The notes: generated by a model not told the origin, from the sequence alone. A stretch of DNA of 64,000 bases from an uncultured Actinomycetota bacterium (GCA_963766325.1 CAVXZF010000013.1:71653-135652), one strand, 5' to 3'. Shown: positions 22,444-51,391, numbered from the stretch's first letter. Numbers and translations: made by a program.

Positions 22444-24615
22444 GTGACGGACATCGTCGACCCCACCCGGCCGCGGCTGCCGCTGGCCGAGGTCCACCAG
22501 CCCGGCTGGTCCCGCAGCTCCATGACCTGCCTCTACCGGTGCGGCAACGCCTGCGCGCACCCGGTCCCCAACCAGACCGACAACGAGTACTTCGGCGACA
22601 TCGTCGAGAAGGTCGTGTCCCGCCGCGGCGTGCTCAAGGCCAGCGCGGTCGGGGCGCTGGTCGCCGGTGCCGGGGTGGCCGGGGCGCTGCCCGCGGCGGC
22701 CGCGCCCGCCGCCCCGGCGGCGCCCGCGGCCGGCGCCGCCCGCGGCGGCCGCCCGGACACCTCCGGCAGCGCGCTGACCTTCCCCGCGGTGCCGCCCAAC
22801 CAGCTGGACACCGTGGTGGTGGCCAACGGCTACGACTGGTCGGTGGTGATCCGCTGGGGCGACCCGGTGCTGCCCGGCGCGCCGGCGTGGGACCCGGCCA
22901 ACCAGACGCCCGCCACGCAGGCGGCCCAGTTCGGCTACAACTGCGACTTCCTCGGCGTGCTCCCGCTCGGCCGCCACGGCGACCGGGCGCTGCTGTGGTC
23001 CAACCACGAGTACACCAACGAAGAGCTCATGTTCCCCGGCTTCACCTCGCACGACGCGCTCACCGTGGACCAGGTCCGGGTCGCGATGCTGGCGCACGGC
23101 GGCTCGATCCTGGAGATCGAGCGGGTCGGCGACACGGGGCAGTGGCGGAGGGTGACCCGCGGCGGCCGCAAGTACAACCGGCGGATCACCGCGATGACAC
23201 CGATGCGCTTCACCGGCGGCGCGGCCGGCAGCGCGCTGCTGCGCACGAACGCCGACCCGACCGGCCGGCGGGTGCTCGGCATGCTCAACAACTGCGCCGG
23301 CGGGGTCACCCCGTGGGGCACGATCCTCACCGGCGAGGAGAACTTCAACCAGTACTTCGTCGGCGGCGACGCGGTCCCGGCGGCGGACAAGCCGGCGCTG
23401 GCCCGGTACGGGATCAGCACCACCGCGCGCTACCCCAGCGGCTCGCGCAAGTGGGAGCGGGCCGACCGGCGCTTCGACCTCGCGGTCGAGCCGCACGAGG
23501 CCAACCGGTTCGGCTACATCGTCGAGATCGACCCGTACGACCCGGACTCGACGCCGCGCAAGCACACCGGGCTCGGCCGGTTCAAGCACGAGGGCGCCAA
23601 CATCAAGGTCGGCAACGACGGCCGGGTCGCCGCGTACATGGGCGACGACGAGCGGTTCGACTACATCTACAAGTTCGTCTCGTCCCGCAAGATGCGCCGC
23701 GGGCACAGCCGGGCCGACCGACAGTGGAACATGCGGCTGCTCGAGGACGGCACGCTCTACGTCGCCAAGTTCACCGGCGACTCGCCGCCGGCCGAGATCG
23801 ACGGCAGCGGCCGGCTGCCCTCGGACGGCGAGTTCGACGGCTCGGGGCAGTGGATCCCGCTGACCGACGGCAAGCGCAGCTTCGTGCCCGGCTTCACCGT
23901 CGAGCAGTGCCTGGTGCACACCCGGCTGGCCGCGGACGCGGTCGGCGCGACCAAGATGGACCGGCCCGAGGACGTCGAGCCCAACCCCGTCAACGGCAAG
24001 ATCTACGCCGCGCTGACCAACAACGTCGACCGGGTGGTGACCACGCCGGTCCCGCCGAGCGGCCGGGTGGCGGGGGTGGACGAGGCCAACCCGCGCCCGA
24101 CCAACCGGCACGGGCAGGTGCTGGAGATCACCGAGGCCCGCGACGACGCGGCCGCCACCACGTTCGCCTGGGCGCTGCCGATCGTCTGCGGCGACCCGGC
24201 CGACCCGTCGACGTACTTCGCCGGGTACGACAAGACCAAGGTCAGCCCGATCTCCAGCCCGGACAACGTGGCCTTCGACCGGCCCGGCAACCTGTGGATC
24301 GCCACCGACGGCAACGCGCTGCCGCCGGTCAGCGGCACCGGCAAGAACAACGACGGCCTGTTCGCGATGCCGCTGGAGGGACCGGAGCGCGGGCACCTCA
24401 AGCAGTTCGCCACCGTGCCGGTCGGGGCGGAGACCTGCGGGCCGTTCATCACCGCCGACCAGCGCACGGTCTTCATCGCCGTGCAGCACCCCGGCGAGGT
24501 GGCCGGGTCGACGTACGACAACCCGGCCTCCACCTGGCCGGACGGCAGCAAGCCGCGGCCGTCGGTGGTGTCCATCTGGCGGATCGCGGAAGGCAGCAAG
24601 CGGATCGGCGCCTGA
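22444..24615 (+). CDS. phoX: PhoX-family (DUF839) secreted phosphatase
   Basis: GTG 22444 follows AAGGAG. Tat-like signal SRRGVLKASAVGALVAGAG. WSNHEYT, NNCAGGVTPWGTILTGEEN, RFGYIVEIDP, GRFKHEGA, PDNVAFD. Confidence 0.85.
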   Translation: MTDIVDPTRPRLPLAEVHQPGWSRSSMTCLYRCGNACAHPVPNQTDNEYFGDIVEKVVSRRGVLKASAVGALVAGAGVAGALPAAAAPAAPAAPAAGAARGGRPDTSGSALTFPAVPPNQLDTVVVANGYDWSVVIRWGDPVLPGAPAWDPANQTPATQAAQFGYNCDFLGVLPLGRHGDRALLWSNHEYTNEELMFPGFTSHDALTVDQVRVAMLAHGGSILEIERVGDTGQWRRVTRGGRKYNRRITAMTPMRFTGGAAGSALLRTNADPTGRRVLGMLNNCAGGVTPWGTILTGEENFNQYFVGGDAVPAADKPALARYGISTTARYPSGSRKWERADRRFDLAVEPHEANRFGYIVEIDPYDPDSTPRKHTGLGRFKHEGANIKVGNDGRVAAYMGDDERFDYIYKFVSSRKMRRGHSRADRQWNMRLLEDGTLYVAKFTGDSPPAEIDGSGRLPSDGEFDGSGQWIPLTDGKRSFVPGFTVEQCLVHTRLAADAVGATKMDRPEDVEPNPVNGKIYAALTNNVDRVVTTPVPPSGRVAGVDEANPRPTNRHGQVLEITEARDDAAATTFAWALPIVCGDPADPSTYFAGYDKTKVSPISSPDNVAFDRPGNLWIATDGNALPPVSGTGKNNDGLFAMPLEGPERGHLKQFATVPVGAETCGPFITADQRTVFIAVQHPGEVAGSTYDNPASTWPDGSKPRPSVVSIWRIAEGSKRIGA

Positions 24616-24675
24616 CCGCCGGGCATCCGGGGCGGGTCGGGGCAACCGGCCCGCCCCGGGCCGTACGGTGGCGGG

Positions 24676-25989
24676 ATGATCGACGACGGCCTGCGCTTCC
24701 CGCCCGGCTTCCTCTTCGGGACGGCCACGGCGGCGTACCAGATCGAGGGCGCGGTGGCCGAGGACGGGCGCGGGCCGTCCATCTGGGACACCTTCAGCCA
24801 CACCCCGGGCACCACCCGGGACGGCGACACCGGGGACGTCGCCTGCGACTCCTACCACCGCTCGGCCGAGGACGTCGCGCTGATGGCCGGGCTGGGCACG
24901 CAGGCCTACCGGTTCTCGATCTCCTGGTCCCGGGTGCAGCCGACCGGCTCCGGCCCGGTCAACCCGGCCGGCCTGGACCACTACTCCCGGCTGGTGGACG
25001 AGCTGCTGGCGGCGGGCATCGCGCCGGCGGCGACGCTCTTCCACTGGGACCTGCCGCAGGCGCTGCAGGACGCCGGCGGCTGGCGGTCGCGGGACACCGC
25101 CGAGCGCTTCGCCGAGTACGCCGCCGCGGTGGCCGGCACGCTCGGCGACCGGGTGGCCATGTGGATCACGCTCAACGAGCCGGTCGTGCACACCTTCAAC
25201 GGGCACGTCGAGGGCAGCCACGCCCCCGGCCTGCAGCTCGGCTTCGACGCGCTCGCCGTCGCGCACCACCAGCTGCTCGCGCACGGGCTGGCGGTGCCGG
25301 CACTGCGGGCCGCGTCGGCCGCGCCGGTGGGCATCACCAACAACTACTCCCCCGCCGACCCGGCGACGCCGGCCGACGCGGACGCGGCCGCCGGGGTGGA
25401 CGTGCTCTACAACCGGCTGTTCACCGACCCGGTGCTGCTCGGCCGCTACCCGGTCGACGTGCCCGGAGTGGCCGGCGGCGACCTCGCCGCCATCGCCGCG
25501 CCGGTGGACTTCCTGGGCGTCAACTACTACTTCCCGCAGCAGGTGCGGGCCGACCCGGCCGCCGCGCTCGGCTTCACCTCGGTGCCGGCGCCGGGCGAGC
25601 CGCGCACCGCCTTCGACTGGCCGGTGCTGCCGGACGGGCTGCGGCGCACGCTGCTCGACCTGCGCTCGGCGTACGGCGACGCGCTGCCGCCGGTGCACGT
25701 GACCGAAAACGGGATGGCGCACGACGACACCGTCGGTCCGGACGGAACGGTCGACGACCCGGCCCGGGTGTCCTACCTGGACGGTCACCTGCGGGCCGTG
25801 CGGGCCGCGATCGACGCCGGGGTGGACGTCCGCGGCTACTTCTGCTGGTCGCTGCTGGACAACTTCGAGTGGGCCGAGGGCTTCTCCAAGCGCTTCGGGC
25901 TGGTGCACGTCGACTTCGCCACCCTGGCCCGCACGCCGAAGACGTCGTACGGCTGGTACCGGGACCTGATCGCCGCGCAGCCACGCTGA
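24676..25989 (+). CDS. GH1 beta-glucosidase
   Basis: FLFGTATAAYQIEG, TLNEP (acid/base Glu), VTENG (nucleophile Glu). Confidence 0.92.
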   Translation: MIDDGLRFPPGFLFGTATAAYQIEGAVAEDGRGPSIWDTFSHTPGTTRDGDTGDVACDSYHRSAEDVALMAGLGTQAYRFSISWSRVQPTGSGPVNPAGLDHYSRLVDELLAAGIAPAATLFHWDLPQALQDAGGWRSRDTAERFAEYAAAVAGTLGDRVAMWITLNEPVVHTFNGHVEGSHAPGLQLGFDALAVAHHQLLAHGLAVPALRAASAAPVGITNNYSPADPATPADADAAAGVDVLYNRLFTDPVLLGRYPVDVPGVAGGDLAAIAAPVDFLGVNYYFPQQVRADPAAALGFTSVPAPGEPRTAFDWPVLPDGLRRTLLDLRSAYGDALPPVHVTENGMAHDDTVGPDGTVDDPARVSYLDGHLRAVRAAIDAGVDVRGYFCWSLLDNFEWAEGFSKRFGLVHVDFATLARTPKTSYGWYRDLIAAQPR

Positions 25990-25998
25990 GCCGCGCCG

Positions 25999-27255
25999 AT
26001 GCTGCCCGAACGGGTCGAGGTGGAGCCGGCGCGCCCGGTCCGCGCGCGGTTCGTCGCCACCCTGGCGCTGGCCAACCTGGCGCTGTGGATGGGGTTCTTC
26101 ACCCCGATCCAGCTGCTGCTGCCCCAGCAGCTGGAGGACATCGACGCCGACGGCAAGGTCGGCGCGCTGGGCTGGGTGACCGGCGCCGGCGCCGCGGTCG
26201 CCGTGCTGGTCACCCCGCTGGCCGGCGCGCTGTCGGACCGGACCACGTCTCGCTGGGGGCGCCGGCTGCCCTGGCTGGTCGGCGGCACCCTGGCCGCCGC
26301 GGCCGCGTTCGTGGTGCTGTCGCGGCAGTCCACCGTCCTCGGCGTGCTGGTCGGCTGGTGCCTGGCCCAGGCGTGCCTCAACGCCGCGTACGCCGGGCTG
26401 ACCGCCGAGGTGCCCGACCACGTGCCGGTCCGCCAGCGCGGGGTGGTGTCCGGCTGGTTCGGGCTGCCGCAGGCGGTCGGCGTGGTGGTCGGCGTCGCCC
26501 TGGTCACCTCGTTCACCACCACGTCCGGGGCCGGCTACCTGCTGGTGGCGGCCGTGATCGCCATGCTGGTGCTGCCCTTCGCCGCCGTCACCCGGGACGC
26601 CCGGCTGTCCCGGACGGACCGTCCACAGTGGTCGTGGTCCGGCTTCGCCCGCGGCTTCTGGGTCAGCCCGCGCCGGCACCCGGACTTCGGCTGGGCCTGG
26701 CTGACCCGCTTCCTCATCTCGCTCGGCAACGCGCTGGGCACCCTCTACCTGCTCTACTTCCTACGCGACCGGGTCGACTACGAGCGGCTCTTCCCGGGCC
26801 AGACCGCTGAGGACGGCGTGCTGGTGCTCATCCTCATCTACGCGGCCGGCGCGGTGGCCACCGCGGTGGTCGGCGGGGTGCTCTCCGACCGGTCCGGCCG
26901 GCGCAAGCCGCTGGTCATCGCGTCCAGCGTGGTGATGGCGGCCGGCGCGGTGCTGCTCGCGGTCTCGCCGACCTGGACCGCAGCGCTGGTCGCGGCCGGG
27001 CTGCTGGGCACCGGCTACGGCGTCTACATGGCCGTCGACACCGCGCTGATCACGCAGGTGCTGCCGACCGCCGGCGACCGCGGCAAGGACCTCGGCGTCA
27101 TCAACATCGCCAACGCCGCGCCTCAAGTGCTGGCGCCCGCGCTCGCCGCGCCGGTGGTGGCCAGCCTCGGCGGCTACCCGGTGCTGTACGGGCTGACCGC
27201 GCTGGTCACCCTGCTCGGCGCGGTGCTGGTGCTCCCCATCCGCTCGGTGCGCTGA
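25999..27255 (+). CDS. MFS transporter (glycoside-type context)
   Basis: 418 aa with multiple hydrophobic helices. LSDRTTSRWGRRLPW loop motif. Starts 10 nt after the beta-glucosidase stop. Confidence 0.85.
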   Translation: MLPERVEVEPARPVRARFVATLALANLALWMGFFTPIQLLLPQQLEDIDADGKVGALGWVTGAGAAVAVLVTPLAGALSDRTTSRWGRRLPWLVGGTLAAAAAFVVLSRQSTVLGVLVGWCLAQACLNAAYAGLTAEVPDHVPVRQRGVVSGWFGLPQAVGVVVGVALVTSFTTTSGAGYLLVAAVIAMLVLPFAAVTRDARLSRTDRPQWSWSGFARGFWVSPRRHPDFGWAWLTRFLISLGNALGTLYLLYFLRDRVDYERLFPGQTAEDGVLVLILIYAAGAVATAVVGGVLSDRSGRRKPLVIASSVVMAAGAVLLAVSPTWTAALVAAGLLGTGYGVYMAVDTALITQVLPTAGDRGKDLGVINIANAAPQVLAPALAAPVVASLGGYPVLYGLTALVTLLGAVLVLPIRSVR

Positions 27256-27297
27256 GCACGGCGCTGGGCCTCCTGCGTGACCGTCTCGCCAGAGGTC

Positions 27298-30200
27298 TCA
27301 CCCTGAAGGACTCATGAGCTTCTCGATCACCCGAAGGATCTGGATGGCGATGAAGCCTGCTCTCGTCCTCAGGCTGCTTCCTGGTGGGGGATAGGCGCTC
27401 TCCGGTGACACTCGTTCCACCGGATAGCGCTCCGGGAAGCCGACCAGCGGTTCCGTCTCCGGAGGTGGCGGCTCCTCCCACGGGGGCGTGACCGTGATCT
27501 CCGGCTCGTCCTCCGACGAGCCGCCCGGACTCTCCGACTCAGCGTCGATGTGCAGGCCACCGTGGTCGCCGGTCAGGCAACTGAGCGCCGCGGCAAGGCT
27601 CCCGTCGCAGCCGTCCGGGTCTCCACCGGAACCGCCGCCGAGGATCGAGCTCAGCTCCTCGTCGTCGGTCCCGCCGCTGTCGCAGCCGACCACCGGACCG
27701 CCACCGAAGAAGTTGATGATCGAACAGCGACCGTCCTCCGGGTCCGGGGTGATCTCCCGGATCGGTCCCTGGTCCGCCGGCACGTTGATCAGCGGACCCA
27801 GGTCGAGGTCGTCGATCGGGGTGACACAGCACGCCGGGCCGGGGTCCGCCTGCTGCTCACTCCAGTTGTGGATGACTTCCTGCTGCCGCTCCTGCGACAT
27901 GCCGGAGGTGATGCAGGGGCTTCCCGCGTCGGCACCGACGGGAACGCACAGCCCGCTGGGGTCCGCGTGGGTGACCGGGTTGTTGAGCCCGTAGGCGTAG
28001 GGGTTGATCGTCTGGGGGCGGGCCAGGTCGTAGAGGGGGTCCGTGGTCAGGAAGCGACCGATGACCGGGTCGTAGTAGCGGGCGTTGAGGTAGTTGAGGC
28101 CGGTGCGGTCGTCTTCGATCTGTCCGATCCAGCCGCGGTCGGTGGCCGGTTCGTCGGTGGTGCCTCGTTCCCCCCCGTACGGCAGGTAGGCACGGGTGAC
28201 CGACGGGGTGTTGGACCCGCTGGGAACGACGAGCTCCACCGAGTTCTGGTTGTCGGCGACGAGGTGGTCGACGCCGTGGGCGGTGCGGGTGCCGACGGCA
28301 GCGCCGTCCAAGGTGTAGGTGCGGACGACCTTGATCTCGCTGCCGCTGTTGTTGGCGTTGATCTCGTGGCCTTCGATGTACGCGGTGGCGCCGTCGACGT
28401 GGCGGCGCACCAGCCGGCTGCCGTCGGCGTCGTAGACGAAGCTGTTCTTGACGTTGCCGTTGGCCTCGCGGATCTCGTCGAGGAACCGGTCCGGTCCCCA
28501 GGCGACGGTGTCGGTGTTGCCGCCGACGGTGCGGGTGGCCTGCTGGCCGTTGGCGTCCCAGGTGTAGGTCCAGTCGTCCGACGCGCTAGGGCCGTCGATC
28601 GCGGTGGCGGCGTGTGGCCGGGCCGCGGTCGCCCCGGCCGGGTAGCTGTAGCTGAAGGTGTTGGTCTGGTCGGCACCTTCGACGCGGCGGGTGAGGTTGC
28701 CATCGGTGCTGTAGCTGTAGGTGTGGTGGTAGGCGAAGTTGGCGTCGCCCGCGCCGGGGGTGCCGGCGCAGGTGTCGGCCGGCGCCGTGGTGTAGGCGCG
28801 GGTGAGCCGGATGCGCTGGTCGTAGCCGAAGCACTCCCGCCAGGTCTTCGCCGCCAGCGTGGTGTTGCGCTCGGTGATGTTGCCGACCGGGTCGTAGCCG
28901 ATCTGGCGGTCCTGGACGACGGTGCCGGCGGCGTTGGCCTGCATCCGGCCCAGCCGCTGGTTGGCGTCGTACTCCCGCAGGGTCAGCAGCGCGCTGCTGC
29001 CCGTGGTGGCGCCGTAGCCCCACACCGCCGGCCGGGCGCGGTCGTCGTAGCCGAAGCCGGTGGCGTAGCTATAGTCCTGGTCGACCGGGCTGGTCGGAAG
29101 GAGCGTGCCGTCCAGCTTGGTGGGCAGCCCGAGGCTGTTGTAGGTGGTGGTGACGGTCTCGGCCGGCAGACCGCCGTTCTGCGGGTCGCCGACCTGGGGG
29201 TAGGCGACCGAGACGAGGTGGTCGGCGCGGTCGTGGCCGTAGCCGACCTGGTAGACGCCCTCCAGGCCGGGGACGTCGGCGCTGTAGAGCGTCCAGGACC
29301 TGCCGGTGGGCCGGGACCGGCCGTCGTAGCCGGTGACGTCGACGATGTACGCGCCCGGATGCTGCCCGGTGTGCTGCCACCGGGACGACCGGTTGAGCAG
29401 GCCGAGCTCCCCGGCGGCGTCGTACTCCCAGGAGGCCAGCCGGGTTCCGGTGGTGGCGCTGTCCTTGCGCCGCTCGGTGGGGCGGTCGATCGCGTCGTAG
29501 TTGGTGTAGATCCGCACGTTCCTGGCGTCGGTGACGAGGGTCTGGTTACCGGCGGGGTCGTAGCCGTAGGACCAGCTGCCGGCGTCCGGGTCCGACATGG
29601 CGGTGCGGCGGCCGGCCAGGTCGTAGTCGTAGCTGATCTGATGGTCGGCGGGGTCGGTGACGGTGGTGAGGTCGCCGGCGGCGTTGTAGCCGTACCGGGT
29701 GGTGGCCCACTGACTGCCGTCCTGCTCGGCGACGGACACCGGGCGGTCGTAGGCGTCGGTGACGGTGACGACGTCCCCGCCGACGTGCCGGTCGACGGCG
29801 GCCGAGTTGTGGGTGTAGCGCGTGAACGTGGAGTGACTGAGCTGGGTGCCGGCCCAGAAGAGCTCCCAGAAGGGCCGGGACAGCTCGTCGTAGGCGATCT
29901 GGGTGCGGTTGGCCCACCCGGCCGGCGGTGCGGGGAGGACCCCGGTGCCGGGAGTACCGGTGACCGCCTCGGCCGGGGTGACGAAGTGCTTGTTCCCGCG
30001 GTCGTCGTAGCTGGTGTCGACGACGATCACCTTGCCGGCCGCCGGGGACAGCCGCTGGTTCTGCCGCTCCCGCAGCATGCTGTCGTAGACCGACCAGGCG
30101 TCCACGTAGACGGTGGGGTTCGTGGACTGCAGCCGGCGGGTCCGCACGATCGGCGGCTTGCCCTTGGCGGGGTCGATGGCGTACGAGAACTCCCAGGAGG

Positions 30201-33200
30201 CCGGACCCGACGTGGGCTCGGTCGGCTGGAATGCCTTCGTGACCCGTCCCAGCGGGTCGTACGTGTAGCTGGTGGCCTTCCCGTTGGGGTTGATCTCCCT
30301 CGCCGGCGCCTGGCGTTCGATGAACCACTCCTGGCGGGTCTTGTGGCCGAGATGGTTGGTGACCTCGGTCGCGGTCGGGTACCCGCCGGAGGAGGGGGTG
30401 AGGTACGCGGTGGTCGTGCGGTGCTGGTTGGGGTCGGTGACCTGCAGCGGCCGGCCCAGCGCGTCGTACGTCGTGGCCGTGGACGCCCACGCCGTCGAGG
30501 TGAGCCGGGTCCGGGACCCGGTCGGGTTGCCACGGGTGGGCGGGACGCCGACGGCGCCGTTGTCGTACGAGGTCTCGCTCTCCCGCATGACCGTGGTGGA
30601 CGAGCAGGCCCCCCGTACCAGAGCCTGCAACTTCGGGTAGTCGAGCATCCAGGCGTCGAAGTTGAAGGCGTATTGGGTCTTGGTGCAGCGCTCGTCGCCG
30701 GTCTGGTCCAGCCAACCCTCTTCGAGCACCGTCTCCGGGAAGTGCAGGAACCCGTTGTACGCGGTGGTGGTGCGCTTGCGGGCGAACCCGCCCTCGGGCG
30801 TCCGGCGCCGCTCGGTCGCGGTTTCCTCGCCCGACCAGTTGGCCGACCTCTCCGAGTCGGGCTCGTTACCCCCGGTGGTGTCGTCGTCGACCGTGGTAAG
30901 AGTCTTGTAGGTGCGCAGCGTCCCGCGTTCGGTGGCGCCGCCCTTGAGCTGGGCCTCGTCGAAGGTGAGACCGGCCAGCCAGTTGAAGTCGCGGGCGGTG
31001 ACCGTCGTGTCGTCCAGCCCGTGGATGTCGACGGTCTTCGTGGTGGTGCTGTTGGCGATGCGGTCGTCGTGCATGCCGCGGAACACCCGGTAGCGCGTCA
31101 CCGAGCTCCCCTGGGTCATGGTCGCGGTGCCGTAGCCGCGCCAGTCCGACCAGGACTGGTCGGAGAGCTTGACGAACTCGTCCGCGTCGTGGTGCCACGC
31201 CGGGTGCTCGTCGCCGGCGATCCCGTAGCCGTAGGTGTAGGTCATGGCCGGTGACCCGCCCGTGGTGTCCTCCACCCTGACCTGGGTGACCAGCCACTTG
31301 TGGAAGATCCCGAACTGGGTCGGGCCGCCCTCGGGGGTCCACTGCTGGGGGAAGCAGTCGTACCGGTTGTCGTCCCAGCCCCCGGTCGGGTAGGGGTCAC
31401 CGTTGTCGCACGGGTGCGGCCGGCCGTACGTCGCCGTGACCTTGCGGCCGAACTCGTCGGTGACGGTCCCCATCCGGTAGTGCGGCATCCGGGACGCCGT
31501 CGACCCCGGGGCGACCACCCGGTTGTCCAGCTTCACCAGGTCGAACGTCACGCCCGGCAGGGTGAGCGGGGTGGCGCCGGCCAGGCCGGTGCGCTGCACG
31601 CCCTTCAGGTACAGCTTGCGGTCCCCGCCGCCGTTGTCCGCGTGCTCGTGGGTCAGCGTCACATCGTCGACCGGCTTGAACGTGGTCCCCACCCGCACCG
31701 ACGGGACGATCTTGGTGTAGCGCTTGGTGGAGAAGAACGTGGGCGACGTCTGGCTGCACCCGCTGCTGCACAGCAGGTCCAGCGGCACGTCCGGGTAGTC
31801 GGCCGGTGAGCTCGCCGAAGTCGGCGCCGGGCACGTCCCACCGACGTCCAGCGCCGCGCACCGGTGGCCGGCGCCGAACTCCACCTTGACCGCGGGTGCC
31901 TGGGTCGAGCCTTTCCGCGAGCCGTACTCGAGGAATTGCAGCCGCCCGCCCCGGACGTAGGACCGCTCACCCTGCAGCCCCATCACGGCCAGGTACTTGT
32001 TGGTCTCCTTGAAGTACCTGTACGTGGTCACGTTGTCGTTCGGGTCCACGACCCGGTCCAGCATCCAGCGCCAGCCCTGGTCGCAGATCTGGCCGGGGCT
32101 GGTCCGGCAGGGCTCCCCCGGGTGATTGCCGACCACCGGCACCGTCCACACCGAGCTGGTCGCCGTGTTGGTGTCCGGGTTCACCCCCAGGCCGAAGAAG
32201 TACTGGGTGCCGTCCGGCGTGGTGACCCGCCAGTACTCCCTGTCGTTGTCGCCGTTCGCGAAGGTGCCGGTCAGCTGCTCCACCCGCCAGCGCGGGTCCC
32301 GCTTGAGCCGCCACTGGGTGGGGCTCGAGCCGGGCATCCGCACCAGTTCCGACGCCCTCCCGTTCAGCGAGATCGTGGCGTTGTCCGACTTCCAGCACAG
32401 GTCGTAGAACGGTGCCGCGAACTCGTCGACCTCTTCGGCGCAGGTCGTGTAGCGGCGCTCGATGAAGGCCGAGGCGAAGTCGGCCCAGCCCACGCCGTTC
32501 TGCCCGGCCTGGGTGTTGCGGGTGGACACCATCCCGTCCACCGAGCCCGAGGAGTAGTTCAGGCTCACTGCCGGCGCGTTGCCGGCCGGCGGCGCCGGCA
32601 TGGGGGCCTCGTACGACCAGGAGAACTCGCCGGAGCCGACGCCCACCTGCCAGTCGCTGGACACCGACAGCGGCGACGCCTTGAAGTCCCCCGACTCGCC
32701 GGCCGGACCCGAGGTCACCGCCAGCACGACTGCCCCGGTGCCCGCGCTCAAGGCGGCCAGGTCGCCGACCTCGGCCACCAGCCGCTCCGCCGGCCCGTCA
32801 CGGCGGGTCGGGAACGCCGCTCCGCCGGCCCGGCAGCCCTTCGGGCGCGCAGCGGCCAGGGCGCACTCCGGCAGCGCCACCAGCCGCAGCCGGTCCGCGT
32901 AGCCCGACCCGTACCGGCGGGCGAAGCCGGAGTAGTCGATGGCGATCTCGACCGGCAGCGCGCCGCCGCCTGGTGCGGCCAGCTCGCGCTCGCCGGCGCC
33001 CGGCGTCACGCGGAACACGAAGCCGGCCACGCCGGCCCGCTCGGCCGCCGCCCGGTCGAGCACCTCCACCCGCAGCGGCGTACCGGCGCCGGCCGCCGAG
33101 CCGGCCGCCAGCTCCACTGGCGACGCGCCCGCCGCCCGCCACTCGCCCCGGGACCCCAACGTCACATCGGCCTTGTCCGGCCCGGGCAGCACCGCGCGCG

Positions 33201-33441
33201 CGGGCGCCACCGGCTTGTCGACGAGGCGTGGTGCGGAGGCAGCGGCCGGCACCGGCGGAGCCACCGGGTCGTTCCCGGCCGACCAGGGCCTCACCTTCGC
33301 CGGATCCGGACCCTGCCAGTCCGGGGTGCCCGGCGCCCGCTGCTCGGCGGCGGCAGTGGCCGGCGCCAGGCTCGTCACCACCGCCAGCGCCAGCAGCGCC
33401 GCGCCCCCGCGAAACTGGACCGGTCGCTTCACGGAACCCAT
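27298..33441 (-). CDS. secreted RHS/YD-repeat protein RHS1 (2047 aa) with unassigned 216-aa C-terminal tail
   Basis: Signal peptide MGSVKRPVQFRGGAALLALAVVTSLAPATAAAE. Many YD repeats (YDALGRP, YDPLGRV, YDAIDRP, YNSLGLP...). Core end ...LNARYYDPVIGRFLTTDP...NPVTHADPSGL, followed by an acidic Cys-rich tail (27298-27948). Confidence 0.9.
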   Translation of the reverse strand: MGSVKRPVQFRGGAALLALAVVTSLAPATAAAEQRAPGTPDWQGPDPAKVRPWSAGNDPVAPPVPAAASAPRLVDKPVAPARAVLPGPDKADVTLGSRGEWRAAGASPVELAAGSAAGAGTPLRVEVLDRAAAERAGVAGFVFRVTPGAGERELAAPGGGALPVEIAIDYSGFARRYGSGYADRLRLVALPECALAAARPKGCRAGGAAFPTRRDGPAERLVAEVGDLAALSAGTGAVVLAVTSGPAGESGDFKASPLSVSSDWQVGVGSGEFSWSYEAPMPAPPAGNAPAVSLNYSSGSVDGMVSTRNTQAGQNGVGWADFASAFIERRYTTCAEEVDEFAAPFYDLCWKSDNATISLNGRASELVRMPGSSPTQWRLKRDPRWRVEQLTGTFANGDNDREYWRVTTPDGTQYFFGLGVNPDTNTATSSVWTVPVVGNHPGEPCRTSPGQICDQGWRWMLDRVVDPNDNVTTYRYFKETNKYLAVMGLQGERSYVRGGRLQFLEYGSRKGSTQAPAVKVEFGAGHRCAALDVGGTCPAPTSASSPADYPDVPLDLLCSSGCSQTSPTFFSTKRYTKIVPSVRVGTTFKPVDDVTLTHEHADNGGGDRKLYLKGVQRTGLAGATPLTLPGVTFDLVKLDNRVVAPGSTASRMPHYRMGTVTDEFGRKVTATYGRPHPCDNGDPYPTGGWDDNRYDCFPQQWTPEGGPTQFGIFHKWLVTQVRVEDTTGGSPAMTYTYGYGIAGDEHPAWHHDADEFVKLSDQSWSDWRGYGTATMTQGSSVTRYRVFRGMHDDRIANSTTTKTVDIHGLDDTTVTARDFNWLAGLTFDEAQLKGGATERGTLRTYKTLTTVDDDTTGGNEPDSERSANWSGEETATERRRTPEGGFARKRTTTAYNGFLHFPETVLEEGWLDQTGDERCTKTQYAFNFDAWMLDYPKLQALVRGACSSTTVMRESETSYDNGAVGVPPTRGNPTGSRTRLTSTAWASTATTYDALGRPLQVTDPNQHRTTTAYLTPSSGGYPTATEVTNHLGHKTRQEWFIERQAPAREINPNGKATSYTYDPLGRVTKAFQPTEPTSGPASWEFSYAIDPAKGKPPIVRTRRLQSTNPTVYVDAWSVYDSMLRERQNQRLSPAAGKVIVVDTSYDDRGNKHFVTPAEAVTGTPGTGVLPAPPAGWANRTQIAYDELSRPFWELFWAGTQLSHSTFTRYTHNSAAVDRHVGGDVVTVTDAYDRPVSVAEQDGSQWATTRYGYNAAGDLTTVTDPADHQISYDYDLAGRRTAMSDPDAGSWSYGYDPAGNQTLVTDARNVRIYTNYDAIDRPTERRKDSATTGTRLASWEYDAAGELGLLNRSSRWQHTGQHPGAYIVDVTGYDGRSRPTGRSWTLYSADVPGLEGVYQVGYGHDRADHLVSVAYPQVGDPQNGGLPAETVTTTYNSLGLPTKLDGTLLPTSPVDQDYSYATGFGYDDRARPAVWGYGATTGSSALLTLREYDANQRLGRMQANAAGTVVQDRQIGYDPVGNITERNTTLAAKTWRECFGYDQRIRLTRAYTTAPADTCAGTPGAGDANFAYHHTYSYSTDGNLTRRVEGADQTNTFSYSYPAGATAARPHAATAIDGPSASDDWTYTWDANGQQATRTVGGNTDTVAWGPDRFLDEIREANGNVKNSFVYDADGSRLVRRHVDGATAYIEGHEINANNSGSEIKVVRTYTLDGAAVGTRTAHGVDHLVADNQNSVELVVPSGSNTPSVTRAYLPYGGERGTTDEPATDRGWIGQIEDDRTGLNYLNARYYDPVIGRFLTTDPLYDLARPQTINPYAYGLNNPVTHADPSGLCVPVGADAGSPCITSGMSQERQQEVIHNWSEQQADPGPACCVTPIDDLDLGPLINVPADQGPIREITPDPEDGRCSIINFFGGGPVVGCDSGGTDDEELSSILGGGSGGDPDGCDGSLAAALSCLTGDHGGLHIDAESESPGGSSEDEPEITVTPPWEEPPPPETEPLVGFPERYPVERVSPESAYPPPGSSLRTRAGFIAIQILRVIEKLMSPSG

Positions 33442-33446
33442 CGCCG

Positions 33447-33594
33447 CCTCCAGATCGTGAGCGGGCCGGCCGGCACCCCGGGCCGAGCGGGCGGGCGCAG
33501 CGCCGCCAGACGGCCGGAGGAGTCGACACCAGAGCGCAGACGGAATGATTCAGGTGCGTATCCGGCACCGAAAGGCCACTACGAGGCCACTTCG
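33447..33594 (-). promoter_or_regulatory. conserved RHS 5' leader (paralogue of 40225-40369)
   Basis: The 25-mer CCTCCAGATCGTGAGCGGGCCGGCC (33447-33471, covering the RBS) is identical to 40225-40249. AGGCCACT at 33573-33580 and 33584-33591 has an 11-nt period, mirrored at 40348-40366. Confidence 0.6.
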
Positions 33595-33783
33595 CACCGT
33601 AACCGGGCCCAGGCGGCTGGCCGCCGACGCCGTCACCAGAGGTAACCGCGGCCCTGGCCGGTTCGGCTGGCAAGCCATGGGAGCGGTCAGTTAGACACTG
33701 TCGGCGTACGAGGGAATGATTCCGGCAGCCGGCCGCCATCCAGACAGGCCGCTTCTGGCCATCGAGAGGGGAACCGACGCACG

Positions 33784-36120
33784 ATGACTTCCGACGCCGG
33801 ACCCGGGACCGACGGGTCGGCACTGGCGGCGCTGATCCGCGCCTGGCGGGAGCGTGCGCTGCTCACCCAGGAACTGCTCGCCGACCGGGCCGGGTTGGGC
33901 GTGCGCACCATCCGGCGGCTCGAGTCCGGCAGCCTGCGCCGCCCCCGCAGCGGTTCGATGCGGCTGCTCGCCGACGCCCTCGGCCTGAGCGACCAGGAGC
34001 GGGCGCTGCTGACCGCGGCGGCCCGCGGCGGCCCGCCGGCGTCGCAGCCGACCGTCCCGCACCAGCTGCCCGCGGACGTGGCCGGGTTCGCCGGTCGGGT
34101 CGACTTCCTGGCCCGCCTGGACGCCCTGCTGGCCTCGACCGGCGGTGCGCAGCCGACCGCGGTGGTGATCTCCGCGGTCTCGGGTACGGCCGGGGTGGGC
34201 AAGACCGCCCTGGCGGTGCACTGGGCGCACCGGATCCGCGGGCGGTTCCCGGACGGGCAGCTGTACGTGAACCTGCGCGGGTTCGACTCGGCGGGGCAGG
34301 TGACGACCCCGGCCGAGGCCCTGCGCGGGTTCCTCGACGCCCTGCAGGTGCCGGTCGCGCGCATCCCGGCGAGCCTGGATGCGCAGGCCGCGCTCTACCG
34401 CAGCCTGATGGACGGCAAGCAGATGCTGGTGGTGCTCGACAACGCCCGCGACGCCGGGCAGGTGCGCCCGCTGCTGCCCGGCAGCCCGACCGTGATGGTG
34501 CTGGTGACCAGCCGCCGCCTGCTCACCAGCCTGGTGGCCGCCGAGGGTGCCCATCCGCTCACCCTGGACCTGCTGACCCCGGACGAAGCCCGGGAGCTGC
34601 TGACCCGCCGGCTCGGCCCGGAGCGCATCGCCGCCGAGCCCGAGGCGGTCAGCGAGATCATCACCGGGTGCGCGCGGCTACCGCTGGCGCTGACGATCGT
34701 GGCCGCCCGCGCCACCCAGTCCGATCTTCCGCTCGCCGTGCTGGCGGCCGAGCTCGCGAAGGACCGCGCGCGCCTGGACACGCTCGATGCCGGCGACCCG
34801 GTCAGCGAGGTACGAGCGGTGTTCTCCTGGTCCTACACCGCGCTCAGCCCGGCCGCGGGGCGGCTGTTCCGGTTGCTCGGACTGCATCCCGGCCCGGACG
34901 CCTCCGCGGCGGCGGCAGCCAGCCTGGTCGGCCTCCCGGCCCGACAGACCCGCCAGCTGCTGGCCGAGCTCGCCGGGGGCAGCCTGCTGACCGAGCGCGC
35001 TCCCGACCGGTACGCCTTTCACGACCTCCTCCGCGTCTACGCCGCGGACCTGGCCGGCAGCCACGATCCCGTGGCTCAACGCCGGGCCGCCCTCGGCCGG
35101 GTGCTCGACCACTACGTGCACACCGCCTATGCCGCCGCCCGGCTGCTCAACCCGCACCGCGACCCGATCGCCCTCCCCCTGACCCGGCCGGCGCCCGGCG
35201 TCATCCCGGAAGACCTCGTCGACGAGAGGCACGCGCTCGACTGGCTGACCGCCGAGCGTCCGGTCCTGGTCGCCACGGTCCGGCACGCCGCCGGTGCCGG
35301 GTTCGACACCCGGACCTGGCAGCTGGCCTGGGCGCTCGACAACTTCCTTGACTGGCAGGGCCACTGGGACGACTTCGCCACCGTCTGGCACGCCGCGTTG
35401 GAGGCCGCGGTGCGGCTCGAAGACCCGGCCGCACAGGCCTATGCCCACGGCGGCCTCGCCCGCGCCGACACCCGGCAGGGCCGCTACGACCGGGCCCGCG
35501 ACCGCTGCCTGCGCGCGCTCGACCTGTACGGGCAGGCCGGCGACGCCGCCAGCCAGTCGCACACGCACTGCTATCTCACCTACGTGTGCGACCGGCAGGG
35601 CCGGCCCGACCAGGCTCTCCGGCACGCCGAGCAGGCCCTCGTCCTGGCCCGGGCCGCCGGACACCGCCGCGGGCAGGCTGCCGCCCTCAACGCCGTCGGC
35701 TGGTGCCAGACCCAGCTCGGCGACCATCACCGCGCCCTCGCCTGCTGCGAGGAGGCGCTCACGCTGGTCCGGCAGCTCGGCGACCGCGCCGGGGAGGCCG
35801 GCACGTGGGACAGTCTCGGCTACGCCCACCACCACGCCGGCCAGCACCCACAGGCCGCGGACGCGTACCGGCACGCCCTCGATCTCTACCGGGATCTCGG
35901 CGACCGCTTCGGCGAAGCGGACACCCTCACCCGCCTCGGCGACAGCCGGCACACCGCGGGCGACCCCGCCGGCGCGGGCACCGCCTGGCGACAGGCGCTG
36001 GACATCCTCACCGAGCTCGGCCACCCCGACACCGACAGCCTCCGCGCCAAGCTCGACGACCTCGACCTGCCGCTCACTGCGAGTCGTAGTACGAGTCGAC
36101 GGCGGCGTAGCAGCCGATGA
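33784..36120 (+). CDS. STAND NTPase: XRE-type HTH + NB-ARC P-loop + TPR repeats
   Basis: HTH LIRAWRERALLTQELLADRAGLGVRTIRRLESG. Walker A GTAGVGKTALA. LVVLDNA. Arm RLPLAL. C-terminal TPR-like repeats (..AQAYAHGGLARA.., ..ALNAVGWCQTQLGD.., ..TWDSLGYAHHHAGQ..). Confidence 0.85.
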   Translation: MTSDAGPGTDGSALAALIRAWRERALLTQELLADRAGLGVRTIRRLESGSLRRPRSGSMRLLADALGLSDQERALLTAAARGGPPASQPTVPHQLPADVAGFAGRVDFLARLDALLASTGGAQPTAVVISAVSGTAGVGKTALAVHWAHRIRGRFPDGQLYVNLRGFDSAGQVTTPAEALRGFLDALQVPVARIPASLDAQAALYRSLMDGKQMLVVLDNARDAGQVRPLLPGSPTVMVLVTSRRLLTSLVAAEGAHPLTLDLLTPDEARELLTRRLGPERIAAEPEAVSEIITGCARLPLALTIVAARATQSDLPLAVLAAELAKDRARLDTLDAGDPVSEVRAVFSWSYTALSPAAGRLFRLLGLHPGPDASAAAAASLVGLPARQTRQLLAELAGGSLLTERAPDRYAFHDLLRVYAADLAGSHDPVAQRRAALGRVLDHYVHTAYAAARLLNPHRDPIALPLTRPAPGVIPEDLVDERHALDWLTAERPVLVATVRHAAGAGFDTRTWQLAWALDNFLDWQGHWDDFATVWHAALEAAVRLEDPAAQAYAHGGLARADTRQGRYDRARDRCLRALDLYGQAGDAASQSHTHCYLTYVCDRQGRPDQALRHAEQALVLARAAGHRRGQAAALNAVGWCQTQLGDHHRALACCEEALTLVRQLGDRAGEAGTWDSLGYAHHHAGQHPQAADAYRHALDLYRDLGDRFGEADTLTRLGDSRHTAGDPAGAGTAWRQALDILTELGHPDTDSLRAKLDDLDLPLTASRSTSRRRRSSR

Positions 36121-40369: not shown

Positions 40370-40542
40370 ACAAGAGGACCCGGCGGCCGCCGGGAAGCAC
40401 CACCGATCTGCGTACCCGGTACGGGATGACGGCCCGGGTCCGGCGGGCATCGTTCGCCTGGAGACCTTGGCCGCCACCGGACATCCGGTGACCGGAGCCG
40501 CCGGCTGAGTCACGTTTCGGGCCGGCCCGGCGTCCCGTCGGC

Positions 40543-49064: not shown

Positions 49065-49182
49065 GGAAGAACCCCCTCCCCGTGGGACTCGCGTCAGCGT
49101 CGCGCAGCGGACTCGGTGCGGCCAGGGCCGTAAGTCCCCGCCCTCGAGGACTGCAAGGCGGCATGTCGGGCGCACCGGGGCA

Positions 49183-49221
49183 GATCCGATAGAGCCGCTC
49201 CGCGGCTGATCCGATAGAGCC
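49183..49221. repeat. 14-nt direct repeat GATCCGATAGAGCC x2 (25-nt period) at the RHS-fragment boundary
   Basis: Copies at 49183-49196 and 49208-49221. The second copy abuts the last RHS-derived codon (49222). Confidence 0.8.
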
Positions 49222-50095
49222 CCGCACCCCCATCAACACCATGCCCGACGGCGTCTCCGCCGACCGCTGCTTGGCGCCGAGCCACCCGTAGCGGGCCGCC
49301 GGACTGCCGGCCCGCGCGTTGCCGTACTCGTCCGCGGCGAGCACCGTCGGCACGATCGAGGTGTCCAGTGGAAGTTGCAGCGCGACGTCGCCGTGCAGGT
49401 TGGTCAGCTGGAGCAGCGTGCCGCCGGAAGCGGTGGTGGTTGCGGCGAGGTCGCCGGAGAGAGATTCGACGTTGCGGGTGACTGCGGCGGTCGCGGTGTT
49501 CTCCACCGTCCACTTCGGCTCGTCGCCCGCACCGTCGTAGTGGTTGAGCCGGGTCGCCGTCGTCACCCACGACCCGGAGGCGTTCGACTCGGTGGTCCAC
49601 CCCCGCGGCCGCATCGACGCATCCAGCGTCCAACTGGACCGCACCGTCCCGGCGGTCTGTTGCTGCACGAGATCGGTCGCGCAATACGCCGTGAGCAGCA
49701 CGCACAGCGGTGTAGGACCTGTGTCGCGGACGCCCATGAGGACCATGCCGGTCGGGTCTCCGCCGAGCGCTGCTTGGCGCCGAGCCAGCCGTAGCGGGCG
49801 GCCGGGCTTCCGGAACGGGGGTTGCCGTACTCGTCCGCGGCCAGCACCGTCGGCGCGACTGCGGTGTCCAGCGGGTGCAGGTGGTGTCGGTGGCGTCCAG
49901 GACGGTGGTCAGCCGGCCGGCCTTGTCGTAGGCGTAGTCCTGTTCGGACTGCTGGCCGGGGGTGCCGGTGTGGGCGAGCCACTGCCCGTGCACCGACTCG
50001 GCGACCGCGTCCCCGGCCACGATGGCGTCGCCGGAGTCGCCGGAGTCGCGGGTGTACGTCCGCGCGGTCGATCACCGGCGAGGTCGGGGTCTACC
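49222..50095 (-). pseudogene. two truncated RHS core fragments (paralogous to RHS3 residues around TAYYATDLVQQQ...GMTLMGVR)
   Basis: Fragment 1 (49746-49222): TAYCATDLVQQQTAG...NLHGDVALQLPLD...AADEYGNARAGSPAARYGWLGAKQRSAETPSGMVLMGVR. Fragment 2 (about 50095-49747): ...GDAVAESVHGQWLAHTGTPGQQSEQDYAYDKAGRLT..., an internal deletion and frame changes, then ...LDTAVAPTVLAADEYGNPRSG.... No C-terminal tail follows either fragment. Confidence 0.75.
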
Positions 50096-50662
50096 CCACC
50101 GCGGAGCGGAGATATCCCGGCCAGAGTGAGACACTACCCCGCTGCCTGAACCGCTTGGCGCTCCGCGAGTAAGTCTGCCTTCCGGCGCGCGGCCTGAGGA
50201 CCGCCGAGAACTGGCACTCAACAGGTAACTCATCAACGTGGCGCCGTGGCAAGTTGCCTTGCCGAGCGCCACTCACCCTCAGCAAGCCAAGGCCGCCAGA
50301 CGAGACGATCCGCAGCCGCAAGCACGGCGGCGATTTCTGCGCCCTCAGGCGGATTGTTGTTGACTGTCAGGCGGACTTTGTGGAACCAGCGACTTGAGCC
50401 TGGAGACTGCGAGGCTGCGACTCGGCGCGGCGACCACCACTCTGATCAGCTCTTCGCCGTGGCGCAGAGAATTGACTACACCGACAACACATACATCTTC
50501 CACCTGAGTCCCCCCGTCGGGGCTTCACCTCGCATGATGCACTCAACCCCCTATTTCGGGCTCCGCGGTGACCAACCGGGGTAGCCCCACCGCCGGAATG
50601 GGTGGCCGCTGCCGATCCGCCTGCCGCCGACTTCGGGGCGCCCCCGACCCCAGTCCTGACCG

Positions 50663-50689
50663 GCCCCGTCCGTACCGTACGGACGGGGC
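50663..50689 (-). terminator. perfect 12-bp stem / 3-nt loop hairpin following the tRNA fragment
   Basis: GCCCCGTCCGTA-CCG-TACGGACGGGGC. There is no U-tract. Confidence 0.4.
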
Positions 50690-50697
50690 ACACATGA

Positions 50698-50742
50698 TGG
50701 AGCCGCCTGTCGGAATCGAACCGACGACCTATTCATTACGAG
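50698..50742 (-). other. 3' tRNA fragment (anticodon loop to CCA; reads as tRNA-Thr CGU), att-like relic
   Basis: The reverse complement reads CTCGTAA-TGAAT-AGGTC-GTCGG-TTCGATT-CCGAC-AGGCGGC-T-CCA. The preceding bases (GGTGG) cannot pair as the 5' anticodon stem. No D-arm or 5' acceptor is present. Confidence 0.65.
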
Positions 50743-50960
50743 CCACCCGCCCCACGTACGCCACCGTCAGCGGATGTACGAAAGCCACTTGTCCCTGGCC
50801 CACCGCGGACCCTGGGGTACACCGGTTGACGACCAGCAACTGAGACCAGAAATGAGACCATCGACGTCGAGCGGCCGATACGCTTGCTAACTGGGGTGCG
50901 TCGGTAGCGCCGGGCAATTTGTGGCGAACCCACTGCAACGGGACCACGAAGGCGGGATGG

Positions 50961-51365
50961 TCAGTATGGCTCGCACTCGCTCTCGTCACCGCGACCCAAG
51001 CGCAAGTTCAAGTTCAAACCCCCGTACACAGTCACTCCTTCTTCAGCACTCTCCTCTCGTTCGGGAAGAACGATGCGGTAGCGCGCGCCTTTACCCTTGC
51101 CAATCCTTGCGATCCGACCTGCATAGATGGAGCCGACTATGCGCCCCAGCTGCACGAGGCTTTTTCGGTCCGGCCCTAATTCGATCCTGGCGTGCTCGCC
51201 GATGGACAGCACGATCTCGTGACTACTCCATGCAATCGAGAACCCACAAGCGTTCCGACGAAAAGGAACTACATTCACCCAGGACACTTGACTTGGATTC
51301 GAGTGCCACTGCAGCTCGGCCCTGGCTGCAAGCGGTTCAACGATTGCCCGTATCTCAGATTCCAT
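50961..51365 (-). CDS. candidate immunity protein for the RHS3 C-terminal tail
   Basis: ATG 51365 preceded by GGAGAGGAG, 27 nt after the RHS3 stop. 134 aa. Markedly lower GC than the flanking sequence. No family recognised. Confidence 0.5.
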   Translation of the reverse strand: MESEIRAIVEPLAARAELQWHSNPSQVSWVNVVPFRRNACGFSIAWSSHEIVLSIGEHARIELGPDRKSLVQLGRIVGSIYAGRIARIGKGKGARYRIVLPEREESAEEGVTVYGGLNLNLRLGRGDESECEPY

Positions 51366-51391
51366 TGATAGCTCCTCTCCCAGAAGTCGGG

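Follow-up and report, generated by a model that had tools for sequence, protein, structure and literature searches.

Bacillus subtilis WapA/WapI is a Gram-positive example of a contact-dependent RHS toxin that is exported through a signal peptide and carries a variable tail after its core motif. The WapA tail is an enzymatic tRNase, and the cognate immunity gene lies directly downstream. The timing of large protein toxin deployment in Gram-positive bacteria is largely unknown. SARP/AfsR-type regulators have been studied almost only as switches of antibiotic gene clusters, where SARP boxes are 11-nt-phased direct repeats over the -35 region. STAND activators of the MalT type combine a signal-gated NTPase and a C-terminal sensor with a DNA-binding domain, and their promoters contain repeated boxes. 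Here, we analysed a stretch of 64,000 nucleotides (the window) from an uncultured Actinomycetota bacterium (GCA_963766325.1, CAVXZF010000013.1:71653-135652), in which two giant RHS genes, RHS1 and RHS2, flank a gene for an AfsR-like STAND NTPase. We lean towards the reading that RHS1 and RHS2 are exported YD-shell proteins of the polymorphic-toxin type, whose transcription would be gated by the STAND protein encoded between them.

Two described classes are close to these RHS proteins in architecture. Bacterial teneurin-like proteins (PMC13018210) have a Sec-exported YD shell that encapsulates a variable C-terminal domain, and one such domain is membrane-active only when exported. An immunity gene lies immediately downstream of almost all teneurin-like genes, and no regulator is described (PMC13018210). 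'TcdB/TcaC-type' polymorphic toxins are listed as a class for actinobacteria in the passages found in Zhang et al. (2012; PMC3482391).

An AfsR-like STAND gene beside RHS genes

The gene order at the locus (Table 1) comes from a gene call based on GC content at third codon positions (GC3), together with Pfam scans of the window, which is ~73% GC. Coding GC3 is 0.92-0.94 for each of RHS1, the STAND gene and RHS2. An earlier description of this DNA, which we call the original prediction, had two secreted RHS proteins bracketing an XRE-HTH/NB-ARC/TPR protein. Our open reading frame (ORF) calls agree with it on the coordinates, lengths and orientations of the three genes, on the 42-nt gap between RHS1 and the convergent MFS gene, and on the overlap of RHS2 with the STAND gene.

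Table 1. Features of the RHS1-STAND-RHS2 locus, in window coordinates
Feature	Position	Strand	Description
PhoX		+	First of three genes left of RHS1
GH1		+	Follows PhoX
MFS	25999-27255	+	Follows GH1; convergent with RHS1
Segment absent from sister metagenome-assembled genome GCA_035641815.1	27263-33656	.	6394 bp; RHS1, leader and O_RHS1
RHS1	27298-33441	-	Putatively exported, SpvB-like and YD-shell (RHS) protein, 2047 aa
RHS1 C-terminal tail	27298-27948	-	216 aa and stop; orphan, acidic, rich in Gly, Pro and Ser
RHS1 Rhs_assc_core	27949-28188	-	aa 1752-1831; TIGR03696, 69.5 bits; ends ...NNPVTHADPSGL
Core of leader and signal-peptide region paralogous to RHS2	33348-33496	-	Repeat family D6, from alignment
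O_RHS1 (predicted operator)	33529-33594	-	AAGTGGCC-TCGT-AGTGGCC-TTTC-GGTGCC and -10-like GAATCAT
O_prox	33693-33758	-	Degenerate third repeat and GAATCAT copy beside STAND start
STAND regulator	33784-36120	+	778 aa; XRE HTH, NB-ARC, ARM/TPR; AfsR-like body
RHS2	36074-40219	-	Putatively exported DNRLRE/DUF6531/YD-shell protein, 1381 aa; starts MASARR
RHS2 tail cassette	36074-36316	-	243 bp, 80 aa and stop; one Gly-rich hydrophobic segment
STAND/RHS2 convergent 3' overlap	36074-36120	both	47 nt
O_RHS2 (predicted operator)	40304-40369	-	AAGTGGCC-TCTC-AGTGGCC-TGTC-AAGTGCC and -10-like GAACAT
EryCIII-like glycosyltransferase	40543-41874	+	Beyond RHS2

Is the pairing of STAND and RHS genes more than a local arrangement? 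A metagenome scan with an alignment of the RHS1 family gave 78 loci. We defined a close clade as the deduplicated loci whose RHS protein is at least 40% identical to RHS1 (n=14, the window included). An AfsR-like STAND gene is the immediate neighbour in 9/14 of these loci, against 0.35 expected given the background density of STAND genes in related loci (0.0125 per kb; P=7e-12). When the window itself is left out, a STAND neighbour is present in 8/13 (P <1e-9, same formula). Four metagenomic contigs, representing two distinct loci (L087/L093 and L091/L125), have the layout of the window, with an XRE-HTH STAND gene immediately upstream and divergent; their RHS proteins are 47-48% identical to RHS1 and their STAND proteins 58-65% identical to the window's. 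SARP-type STAND genes also occur as neighbours. The RHS1 homologues L081, L082 and L084 have a SARP-NB-ARC-TPR gene immediately adjacent, and L088, L089 and L097 likewise have SARP-type STAND neighbours. The STAND start in L097 overlaps the RHS stop by 4 nt, and therefore the two genes form an operon. We conclude that adjacency of STAND and RHS genes is not due to chance in the RHS1 family.

The same survey from the STAND side gives a different picture, as an RHS gene lies within 10 kb of the STAND relative in only 3/80 loci. This survey alone would have wrongly dismissed the linkage. The expectation that STAND genes of this kind adjoin RHS genes more often than chance predicts is therefore borne out when RHS1-family genes are taken as the starting point, but not when STAND relatives are. 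The original prediction had further suggested a co-regulated module of three genes. The RHS1-STAND adjacency and an upstream element common to both RHS genes favour part of this idea, but not an obligate trio: the closest homologues of RHS2 have neither STAND neighbour nor leader, a 93%-identical sister metagenome-assembled genome (MAG) lacks RHS1, and few STAND relatives lie near an RHS gene.

The excess of STAND neighbours is weak in the distant clade of RHS1-like loci (7/60 against 3 expected, P=0.03). There, the RHS gene can follow a large gene with LamG (Laminin_G_3) repeats by a few nt, as in L010 (17657-21916), and the same order occurs in L136, L116, L153 and L104. This arrangement suggests a two-gene LamG-RHS operon in the distant clade, distinct from the close clade.

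What kind of protein is the STAND regulator? Domain assignment agrees with the XRE-HTH/NB-ARC/TPR identity given earlier. HTH_3/HTH_31 matches cover aa 13-76, and NB-ARC covers aa 129-314 (PF00931, 1.7e-10), with the Walker A motif GTAGVGKTALA and a visible Walker B (LVVLDNA). A TPR_12 match (2.9e-30) follows, and the ARM/TPR region extends to ~aa 750. AfsR structures (8k60/8jke) match the protein at E=1e-107 (aa 44-730 against AfsR 240-921), and the NCBIfam AfsR model matches at 1e-135, below the equivalog cutoff. The structural match begins at AfsR residue 240, and no N-terminal SARP region (OmpR-type winged helix and BTAD) was found in the protein. Therefore, the STAND regulator is an AfsR paralogue in which the SARP domain has been replaced by an XRE HTH. 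The SARP-type protein of L097 is 56% identical to it across NB-ARC/TPR; on this homologous sensor body, one DNA-binding domain has been exchanged for another. Among 185,579 species genomes, identity to the best relatives of the regulator reaches only 57%. Look-ups by exact sequence returned no recorded genomic context for the STAND protein or for RHS1. Compared with the sister MAG, dN/dS is 0.44 for the STAND gene, 0.31 for the RHS2 body and 0.22 for MFS, and all three are therefore under constraint (purifying selection).

The NB-ARC/TPR architecture would also suit an NLR-like conflict sensor that acts in anti-phage or anti-toxin defence and does not activate RHS transcription. A TIR-NB-ARC-TPR gene does lie near one RHS homologue, ~5 kb from the Phytohabitans RHS1 homologue (L081 1-2787), in addition to the adjacent SARP-STAND gene. 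However, the N-terminal domain of the window protein is a DNA-binding HTH, not an enzymatic effector, and its body is that of AfsR by the match above. PADLOC returned only generic TPR and capH-HTH matches for the protein, with no defence assignment. We consider a role as a conflict sensor highly improbable.

A repeat element upstream of RHS1 and RHS2

The leaders of RHS1 and RHS2 are paralogous, as originally proposed, with 74% identity over 149 nt between 33348-33496 (-) and 40126-40274 (repeat family D6). The alignment of the two upstream regions takes in a tandem repeat, the 5' untranslated region (UTR), the Shine-Dalgarno sequence and ~31 signal-peptide codons. The repeats, AAGTGGCC-N4-AGTGGCC-N4-(G/A)GTGCC, have an 11-nt period and are found 130-150 nt upstream of each ATG, within the predicted operators O_RHS1 and O_RHS2, which lie 90-150 nt upstream of their own ATG. 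An exact 18-mer of the repeat array has two sites in the window, O_RHS1 and O_RHS2.

O_RHS2 is conserved in the sister lineage (L168 3700-3765), and the corresponding element of L087/L093 reads AAGTGGCC-GGTC-AATGGCC-GCCT-GTTTGCC-TC-GATTAT. The repeats and the -10-like box are kept at RHS1, RHS2, the sister RHS2, L093 and L091/L125, while the flanking sequence has diverged. SARP-linked homologues have other 11-nt-phased repeats at the same place, namely GATAGAT-like heptamers in L089 and L097 and TATGAnn in L084. The repeat motif tracks the type of DNA-binding domain in the neighbouring STAND protein, with AGTGGCC beside XRE and GATAGAT/TATGAnn beside SARP. Such co-variation is what would be expected if the neighbour binds the repeats.

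These observations bear on whether the adjacency could be a coincidence, with the STAND protein regulating itself or other genes (e.g. GH1-MFS) and the repeats serving another regulator. AfsR-like STAND genes are abundant at the background density given above, few of their relatives have an RHS gene nearby, and in the sister lineage the STAND gene directly follows GH1-MFS. A coincidence of this kind would have to account for the close-clade enrichment, for the identical layout on independent contigs, for the operon overlap in L097 and for a motif that changes with the DNA-binding domain. We regard it as very unlikely.

Several points should also be weighed against the STAND protein as regulator of the RHS genes. 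A STAND neighbour is missing from 5/14 close-clade RHS loci, the metagenomic loci share phylogenetic history and are not independent, and other genomes supplied the background density. STAND relatives as close as the RHS-linked ones (L003-L005) sit beside unrelated genes. The neighbours of close relatives include genes for a lectin of the ricin type, a cellulase and a radical-SAM enzyme. RHS-linked STAND proteins are polyphyletic, being scattered among unlinked ones in a rough tree, and therefore the partnership has been assembled or reshuffled repeatedly and does not define one dedicated STAND clade. Palindromes, not direct repeats, are the usual targets of XRE HTH proteins. The 18-mer pair is not significant by itself, since it lies in paralogous leaders and in GC-rich DNA, and a score for three GTGGCC repeats is non-specific in 73% GC DNA (37 sites scoring at least 15 in ~5.7 Mb). 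Because this naive repeat score does not discriminate, the argument for an operator rests on positional conservation across orthologues.

How might the RHS genes be switched on? We propose that a signal would be sensed by the TPR/NB-ARC body and lead to nucleotide-dependent activation of the STAND protein. Its N-terminal XRE HTH domains would then occupy the AGTGGCC array, whose three repeats are phased by 11 nt and would cover the -35 region of a weak promoter with a GAATCAT/GAACAT -10-like box, and this occupancy would switch on both RHS1 and RHS2.

O_prox has the compact layout of the orthologous promoters and is retained in the sister, and it is likely to be the ancestral promoter of RHS1. 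A sigma-70-like, promoter-like site for the STAND gene (33692-33720) overlaps O_prox back-to-back, with the -10-like box of O_prox as its counterpart on the reverse strand. This arrangement suggests divergent overlapping promoters and, possibly, autoregulation.

RHS2, which belongs to a different RHS lineage from RHS1, appears to be a later recruit to this regulon. This lineage is small and separate (25 matches), and its nearest homologues (68% and 58% identity) have a different N-terminus, no NB-ARC neighbour and no AGTGGCC leader. An RHS2-like N-terminus was absent from all syntenic loci examined, and the N-terminal region of RHS1 stays homologous to that of its orthologues. The simplest reading of these comparisons is that a ~240-bp operator/leader/signal-peptide module became common to RHS1 and RHS2 by duplication or gene conversion, which would have placed RHS2 under the same control. 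The divergent STAND/RHS1 pair would then be the old unit, which RHS2 would have joined through the module.

For the common 5' UTR, at 33430-33545 (-) and 40208-40320 (-), folding predicts a long hairpin in which the Shine-Dalgarno region is paired. The hairpin is represented by three sequences with one compensatory pair only, and the leader matched no known RNA in Rfam.

Variable tails, immunity genes and the history of the locus

RHS1 and RHS2 both match YD repeats (RHS_repeat, PF05593 and TIGR01643), and profile matches place their cores where the original prediction saw them, ending in HADPSGL and YRDPTGQ, respectively. The RHS2 core (Rhs_assc_core, aa 1218-1301; TIGR03696, 68.0 bits) follows a DNRLRE domain and DUF6531, and has YYQP where the RHS1 core has YYDP. 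The RHS1 family comprises 556 matches to actinomycete proteins of 2000-2300 aa. Its members match the TEN_YD-shell Pfam family, as do RHS2 homologues, and some (P0002, P0008) have SpvB above threshold; a Pfam scan did not detect SpvB in RHS1 itself. PDB sequence matches of RHS1 are confined to the core region of Rhs, TccC (TccC2) and YenC (YenC2) proteins.

The Sec-type signal peptides claimed for both proteins are putative. Export signals with n-, h- and AxA-like regions can be read by eye, in RHS1 as in RHS2, but the n-region of RHS2 resembles a twin-arginine (Tat) motif more than a plain Sec signal (SARRTLLC, window 40190-40219 (-)). Relatives of RHS2 have SARRTFLC in the same n-region (sister L168, 3849 onward).

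The C-terminal tail varies between close homologues in both lineages. Homologues cover only 87-91% of RHS1, so conservation in its family ends at DPSGL, after which they bear varied tail domains, including nuclease, tRNase and PT-HINT (precomputed Pfam). RHS2 departs from its 94.6%-identical sister at the end of the core. The RHS1 tail has a net charge of -28, with 13% Gly and 13% Pro, and found a single weak 51-residue match among 1.84 billion representatives; the RHS2 tail has a net charge of -17. No Pfam family matched either tail at E<=1. AlphaFold2 models of the tails have mean confidence scores (pLDDT) of 46 for RHS1, mostly coil, and 38 for RHS2, which is uninformative. Both tails thus look orphan, acidic and non-globular, and are putative toxins.

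Comparison with a sister lineage exposes the recent history of the locus. Proteins at least 90% identical to the STAND protein and RHS2 occur in the 'Mycobacteriales bacterium' MAG GCA_035641815.1 and in other samples. The sister contig L167 encodes GH1-MFS-STAND and aligns at 93% identity with window 24494-27262, from which it passes straight on to 33657-36073. The sister keeps the STAND gene, RHS2 with its operator, and O_prox despite the absence of RHS1. Because O_prox matches the promoter of the orthologues, the more parsimonious explanation is that the sister deleted RHS1, not that the window gained it by insertion. A second sister contig, L168, carries two glycosyltransferase genes and then RHS2, and aligns at 94.6% from the leader to window 36317, the exact end of the RHS2 core. 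Beyond this point the sister has a different, Gly-rich hydrophobic tail of 91 aa, identical in three independent samples. It is followed by a small ORF of hydrophobic, membrane type, which is preceded by a Shine-Dalgarno sequence, begins VRRRLGILLGMLFLTLGIGG... and is cut by the contig end. The last ~14 STAND codons also differ, the C-terminus being ...LPPSGPAGPASPVTA in the sister and ...LPLTASRSTSRRRRSSR in the window.

Since similarity to the sister ends at the core and the STAND end is rewritten, the tail cassette and the 47-nt overlap were left behind by a tail swap. The overlap of STAND and RHS2 thus reads as a by-product of recombination with a breakpoint in the last STAND codons, not as regulatory design. 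In our proposal the locus would be a recombination hot spot, in which the sister lineage deleted RHS1. In the window, a swap of the RHS2 tail would have changed the STAND 3' end and produced the overlap, with no immunity gene remaining.

Three independent assemblies of the sister type break within ~130 nt of the STAND or RHS2 stop (L167 5233-5327, L168 8027-8155, L169 6567-6673), and the L167 end bears a tandem GGGCCAGCTCGACC x3 repeat. The lineages also differ in copy number beside the RHS2 promoter, where the sister has two tandem EryCIII-like glycosyltransferase genes (L168 927-3609), with 80% and 73% nucleotide identity to the single copy of the window.

Why do RHS1 and RHS2 lack immunity genes? 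As the original prediction noted, there is no immunity ORF directly downstream of either gene in the window. It had named a conserved small immunity ORF downstream as a finding that would speak against its proposal, and this partly applies to RHS2, given the other tail and the small ORF in the sister. One explanation is that RHS1 and RHS2 are without immunity genes by accident, after recent rearrangement in an RHS recombination hot spot, that their tails are defunct or cargo-less remnants and that self-protection is in no way special here. The replaced RHS2 tail and rewritten STAND codons are consistent with this, as are the presence/absence polymorphism of RHS1 and its orphan, mostly coil tail, which has an in-frame GC3 of 0.82 against 0.96 in the RHS1 body. 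A third RHS locus in the window (RHS3) has also retained a classical tail, a low-GC ORF and an orphan fragment. However, both tails keep an in-frame coding GC3 signature, and RHS2-family tails have an unusual style in common (80-106 aa, net charge -8 to -17, 11-21% Gly, one hydrophobic segment) that recurs in four lineages. Moreover, 17/54 RHS1-family loci with enough downstream sequence also lack, close to the RHS stop, any same-strand ORF of 60 aa or more. They include cultured Kribbella deserti, in which 4 nt separate the stops of the STAND and RHS genes, and several of them have a STAND gene in that downstream position. We consider an accident of rearrangement plausible, although it is not the explanation that we favour.

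Alternatively, the RHS proteins might not be antibacterial. They might target eukaryotes or form surface or adhesion shells for which no immunity would be needed, and the STAND protein might regulate an interaction or developmental programme. The absence of recognisable toxin domains and of immunity genes would fit, as would the SpvB/TcB-like N-terminal region of homologues and the LamG, lectin and glycosidase genes that are common neighbours of RHS/STAND homologue loci. Two loci have a gene for a secreted GH43-like protein of ~1050 aa directly after the RHS stop (L093 12422-15622 and L086 14011-17160); it starts 4-7 nt downstream, the two proteins are 74% identical to each other, and it amounts to a conserved accessory gene in the immunity position. 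Yet family members have recognised nuclease/tRNase tail domains and PT-HINT, at many loci the RHS gene is followed by a small overlapping ORF of the kind typical of immunity genes, and no TcA-like partner was seen in the window. On balance this seems rather unlikely. The absence of immunity genes is real and recurrent in the RHS1 family, and could reflect a rearrangement accident, a non-self target or an inert tail. The RHS2 family offers one related case, a homologue (L166) with a 72-aa two-helix membrane ORF 9 nt downstream.

RHS3 (49094-57871 (-)), which the original prediction omitted, consists of at least three overlapping ORFs (57218-57871; 54813-57071 with CBM96; 51392-55012 with RHS repeats), and this split suggests frameshifts or assembly errors. 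Its layout is classical, with a core motif, a basic Arg-rich tail, a downstream ORF and orphan fragments. A low-GC ORF of 147 aa (GC3 0.62; 50961-51404) overlaps the stop and is an immunity candidate, and the orphan RHS C-terminal fragments are at 49094-50075. RHS3 has no AGTGGCC operator.

Comparison with known systems

What would regulation by an AfsR-like protein mean for RHS toxins? A conserved pairing of AfsR-like STAND and RHS genes would extend SARP/AfsR logic to protein weapons. It would also provide a concrete operator for tests, together with a candidate sensor domain; the ligand of that domain could show what triggers toxin release. The window also appears to show one route of regulon growth, a ~240-bp module common to two unrelated RHS genes, and the recurrent absence of immunity genes questions the assumption that every RHS toxin has one. 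More broadly, filamentous actinomycetes in general might use AfsR-like STAND proteins as dedicated, signal-gated switches for their exported SpvB-RHS cocoon toxins. Such proteins would have been recruited repeatedly, with SARP/XRE swaps on a homologous sensor body, and STAND-linked RHS loci would often do without immunity genes, the STAND gene occupying the usual immunity position. We find this generalisation doubtful. If true, it would imply a different logic of self-protection, based on gating of expression or on toxins that are unable to act on kin.

The regulator resembles AfsR and the other 'large SARP' regulators of Streptomyces, with a homologous NB-ARC, ARM and TPR body (8k60, 8jke), and each is encoded beside its targets, which are putative in the window. 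Like SARP targets, the RHS promoters show 11-nt-phased repeats, here predicted operators. However, AfsR has a SARP winged helix and BTAD where the window protein has an XRE HTH, and AfsR acts on biosynthetic gene clusters whereas the putative targets in the window encode giant secreted RHS proteins. MalT is more different, as its DNA-binding domain is of the LuxR type and at the opposite end of the protein, and its regulon also differs.

Among RHS systems, WapA is similar to RHS1 and RHS2 in its variable tail after the core and in its export signal, which is putative in RHS1 and RHS2. Unlike WapA, RHS1 and RHS2 have no immunity ORF and no recognisable toxin domain, and they have a dedicated STAND neighbour. 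The RHS1 family has the (here putative) signal peptide, SpvB-like region and RHS shell of TcB-TcC cocoons and TcdB/TcaC-type toxins, and it corresponds to the TcdB/TcaC-type class as given in the passages found in Zhang et al. (2012; PMC3482391). AfsR is nowhere mentioned in that paper, and a STAND regulator in none of those passages. RHS1 itself departs from this class, with SpvB undetected and no TcA-like gene among the scanned window neighbours. Teneurin-like proteins have in common with RHS1 and RHS2 a YD shell and a variable C-terminal domain, as well as the TEN_YD-shell matches of homologues, but their genes have the downstream immunity gene that RHS1 and RHS2 lack. The RHS2-family tails may be closest to the membrane-active, export-dependent C-terminal domain of a teneurin-like protein, although this is only a resemblance.

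The original prediction knew of no described system with this architecture, and our literature searches on RHS/YD repeats with SARP, AfsR, NB-ARC or STAND likewise found no paper on the pairing. Both components belong to known kinds, the polymorphic RHS toxins and the cluster-situated regulators of AfsR type. What appears to be new, as judged from sequence comparison, is their conserved pairing, the swap of SARP and XRE domains, the common operator, a leader captured by a second RHS gene and the frequent absence of immunity genes.

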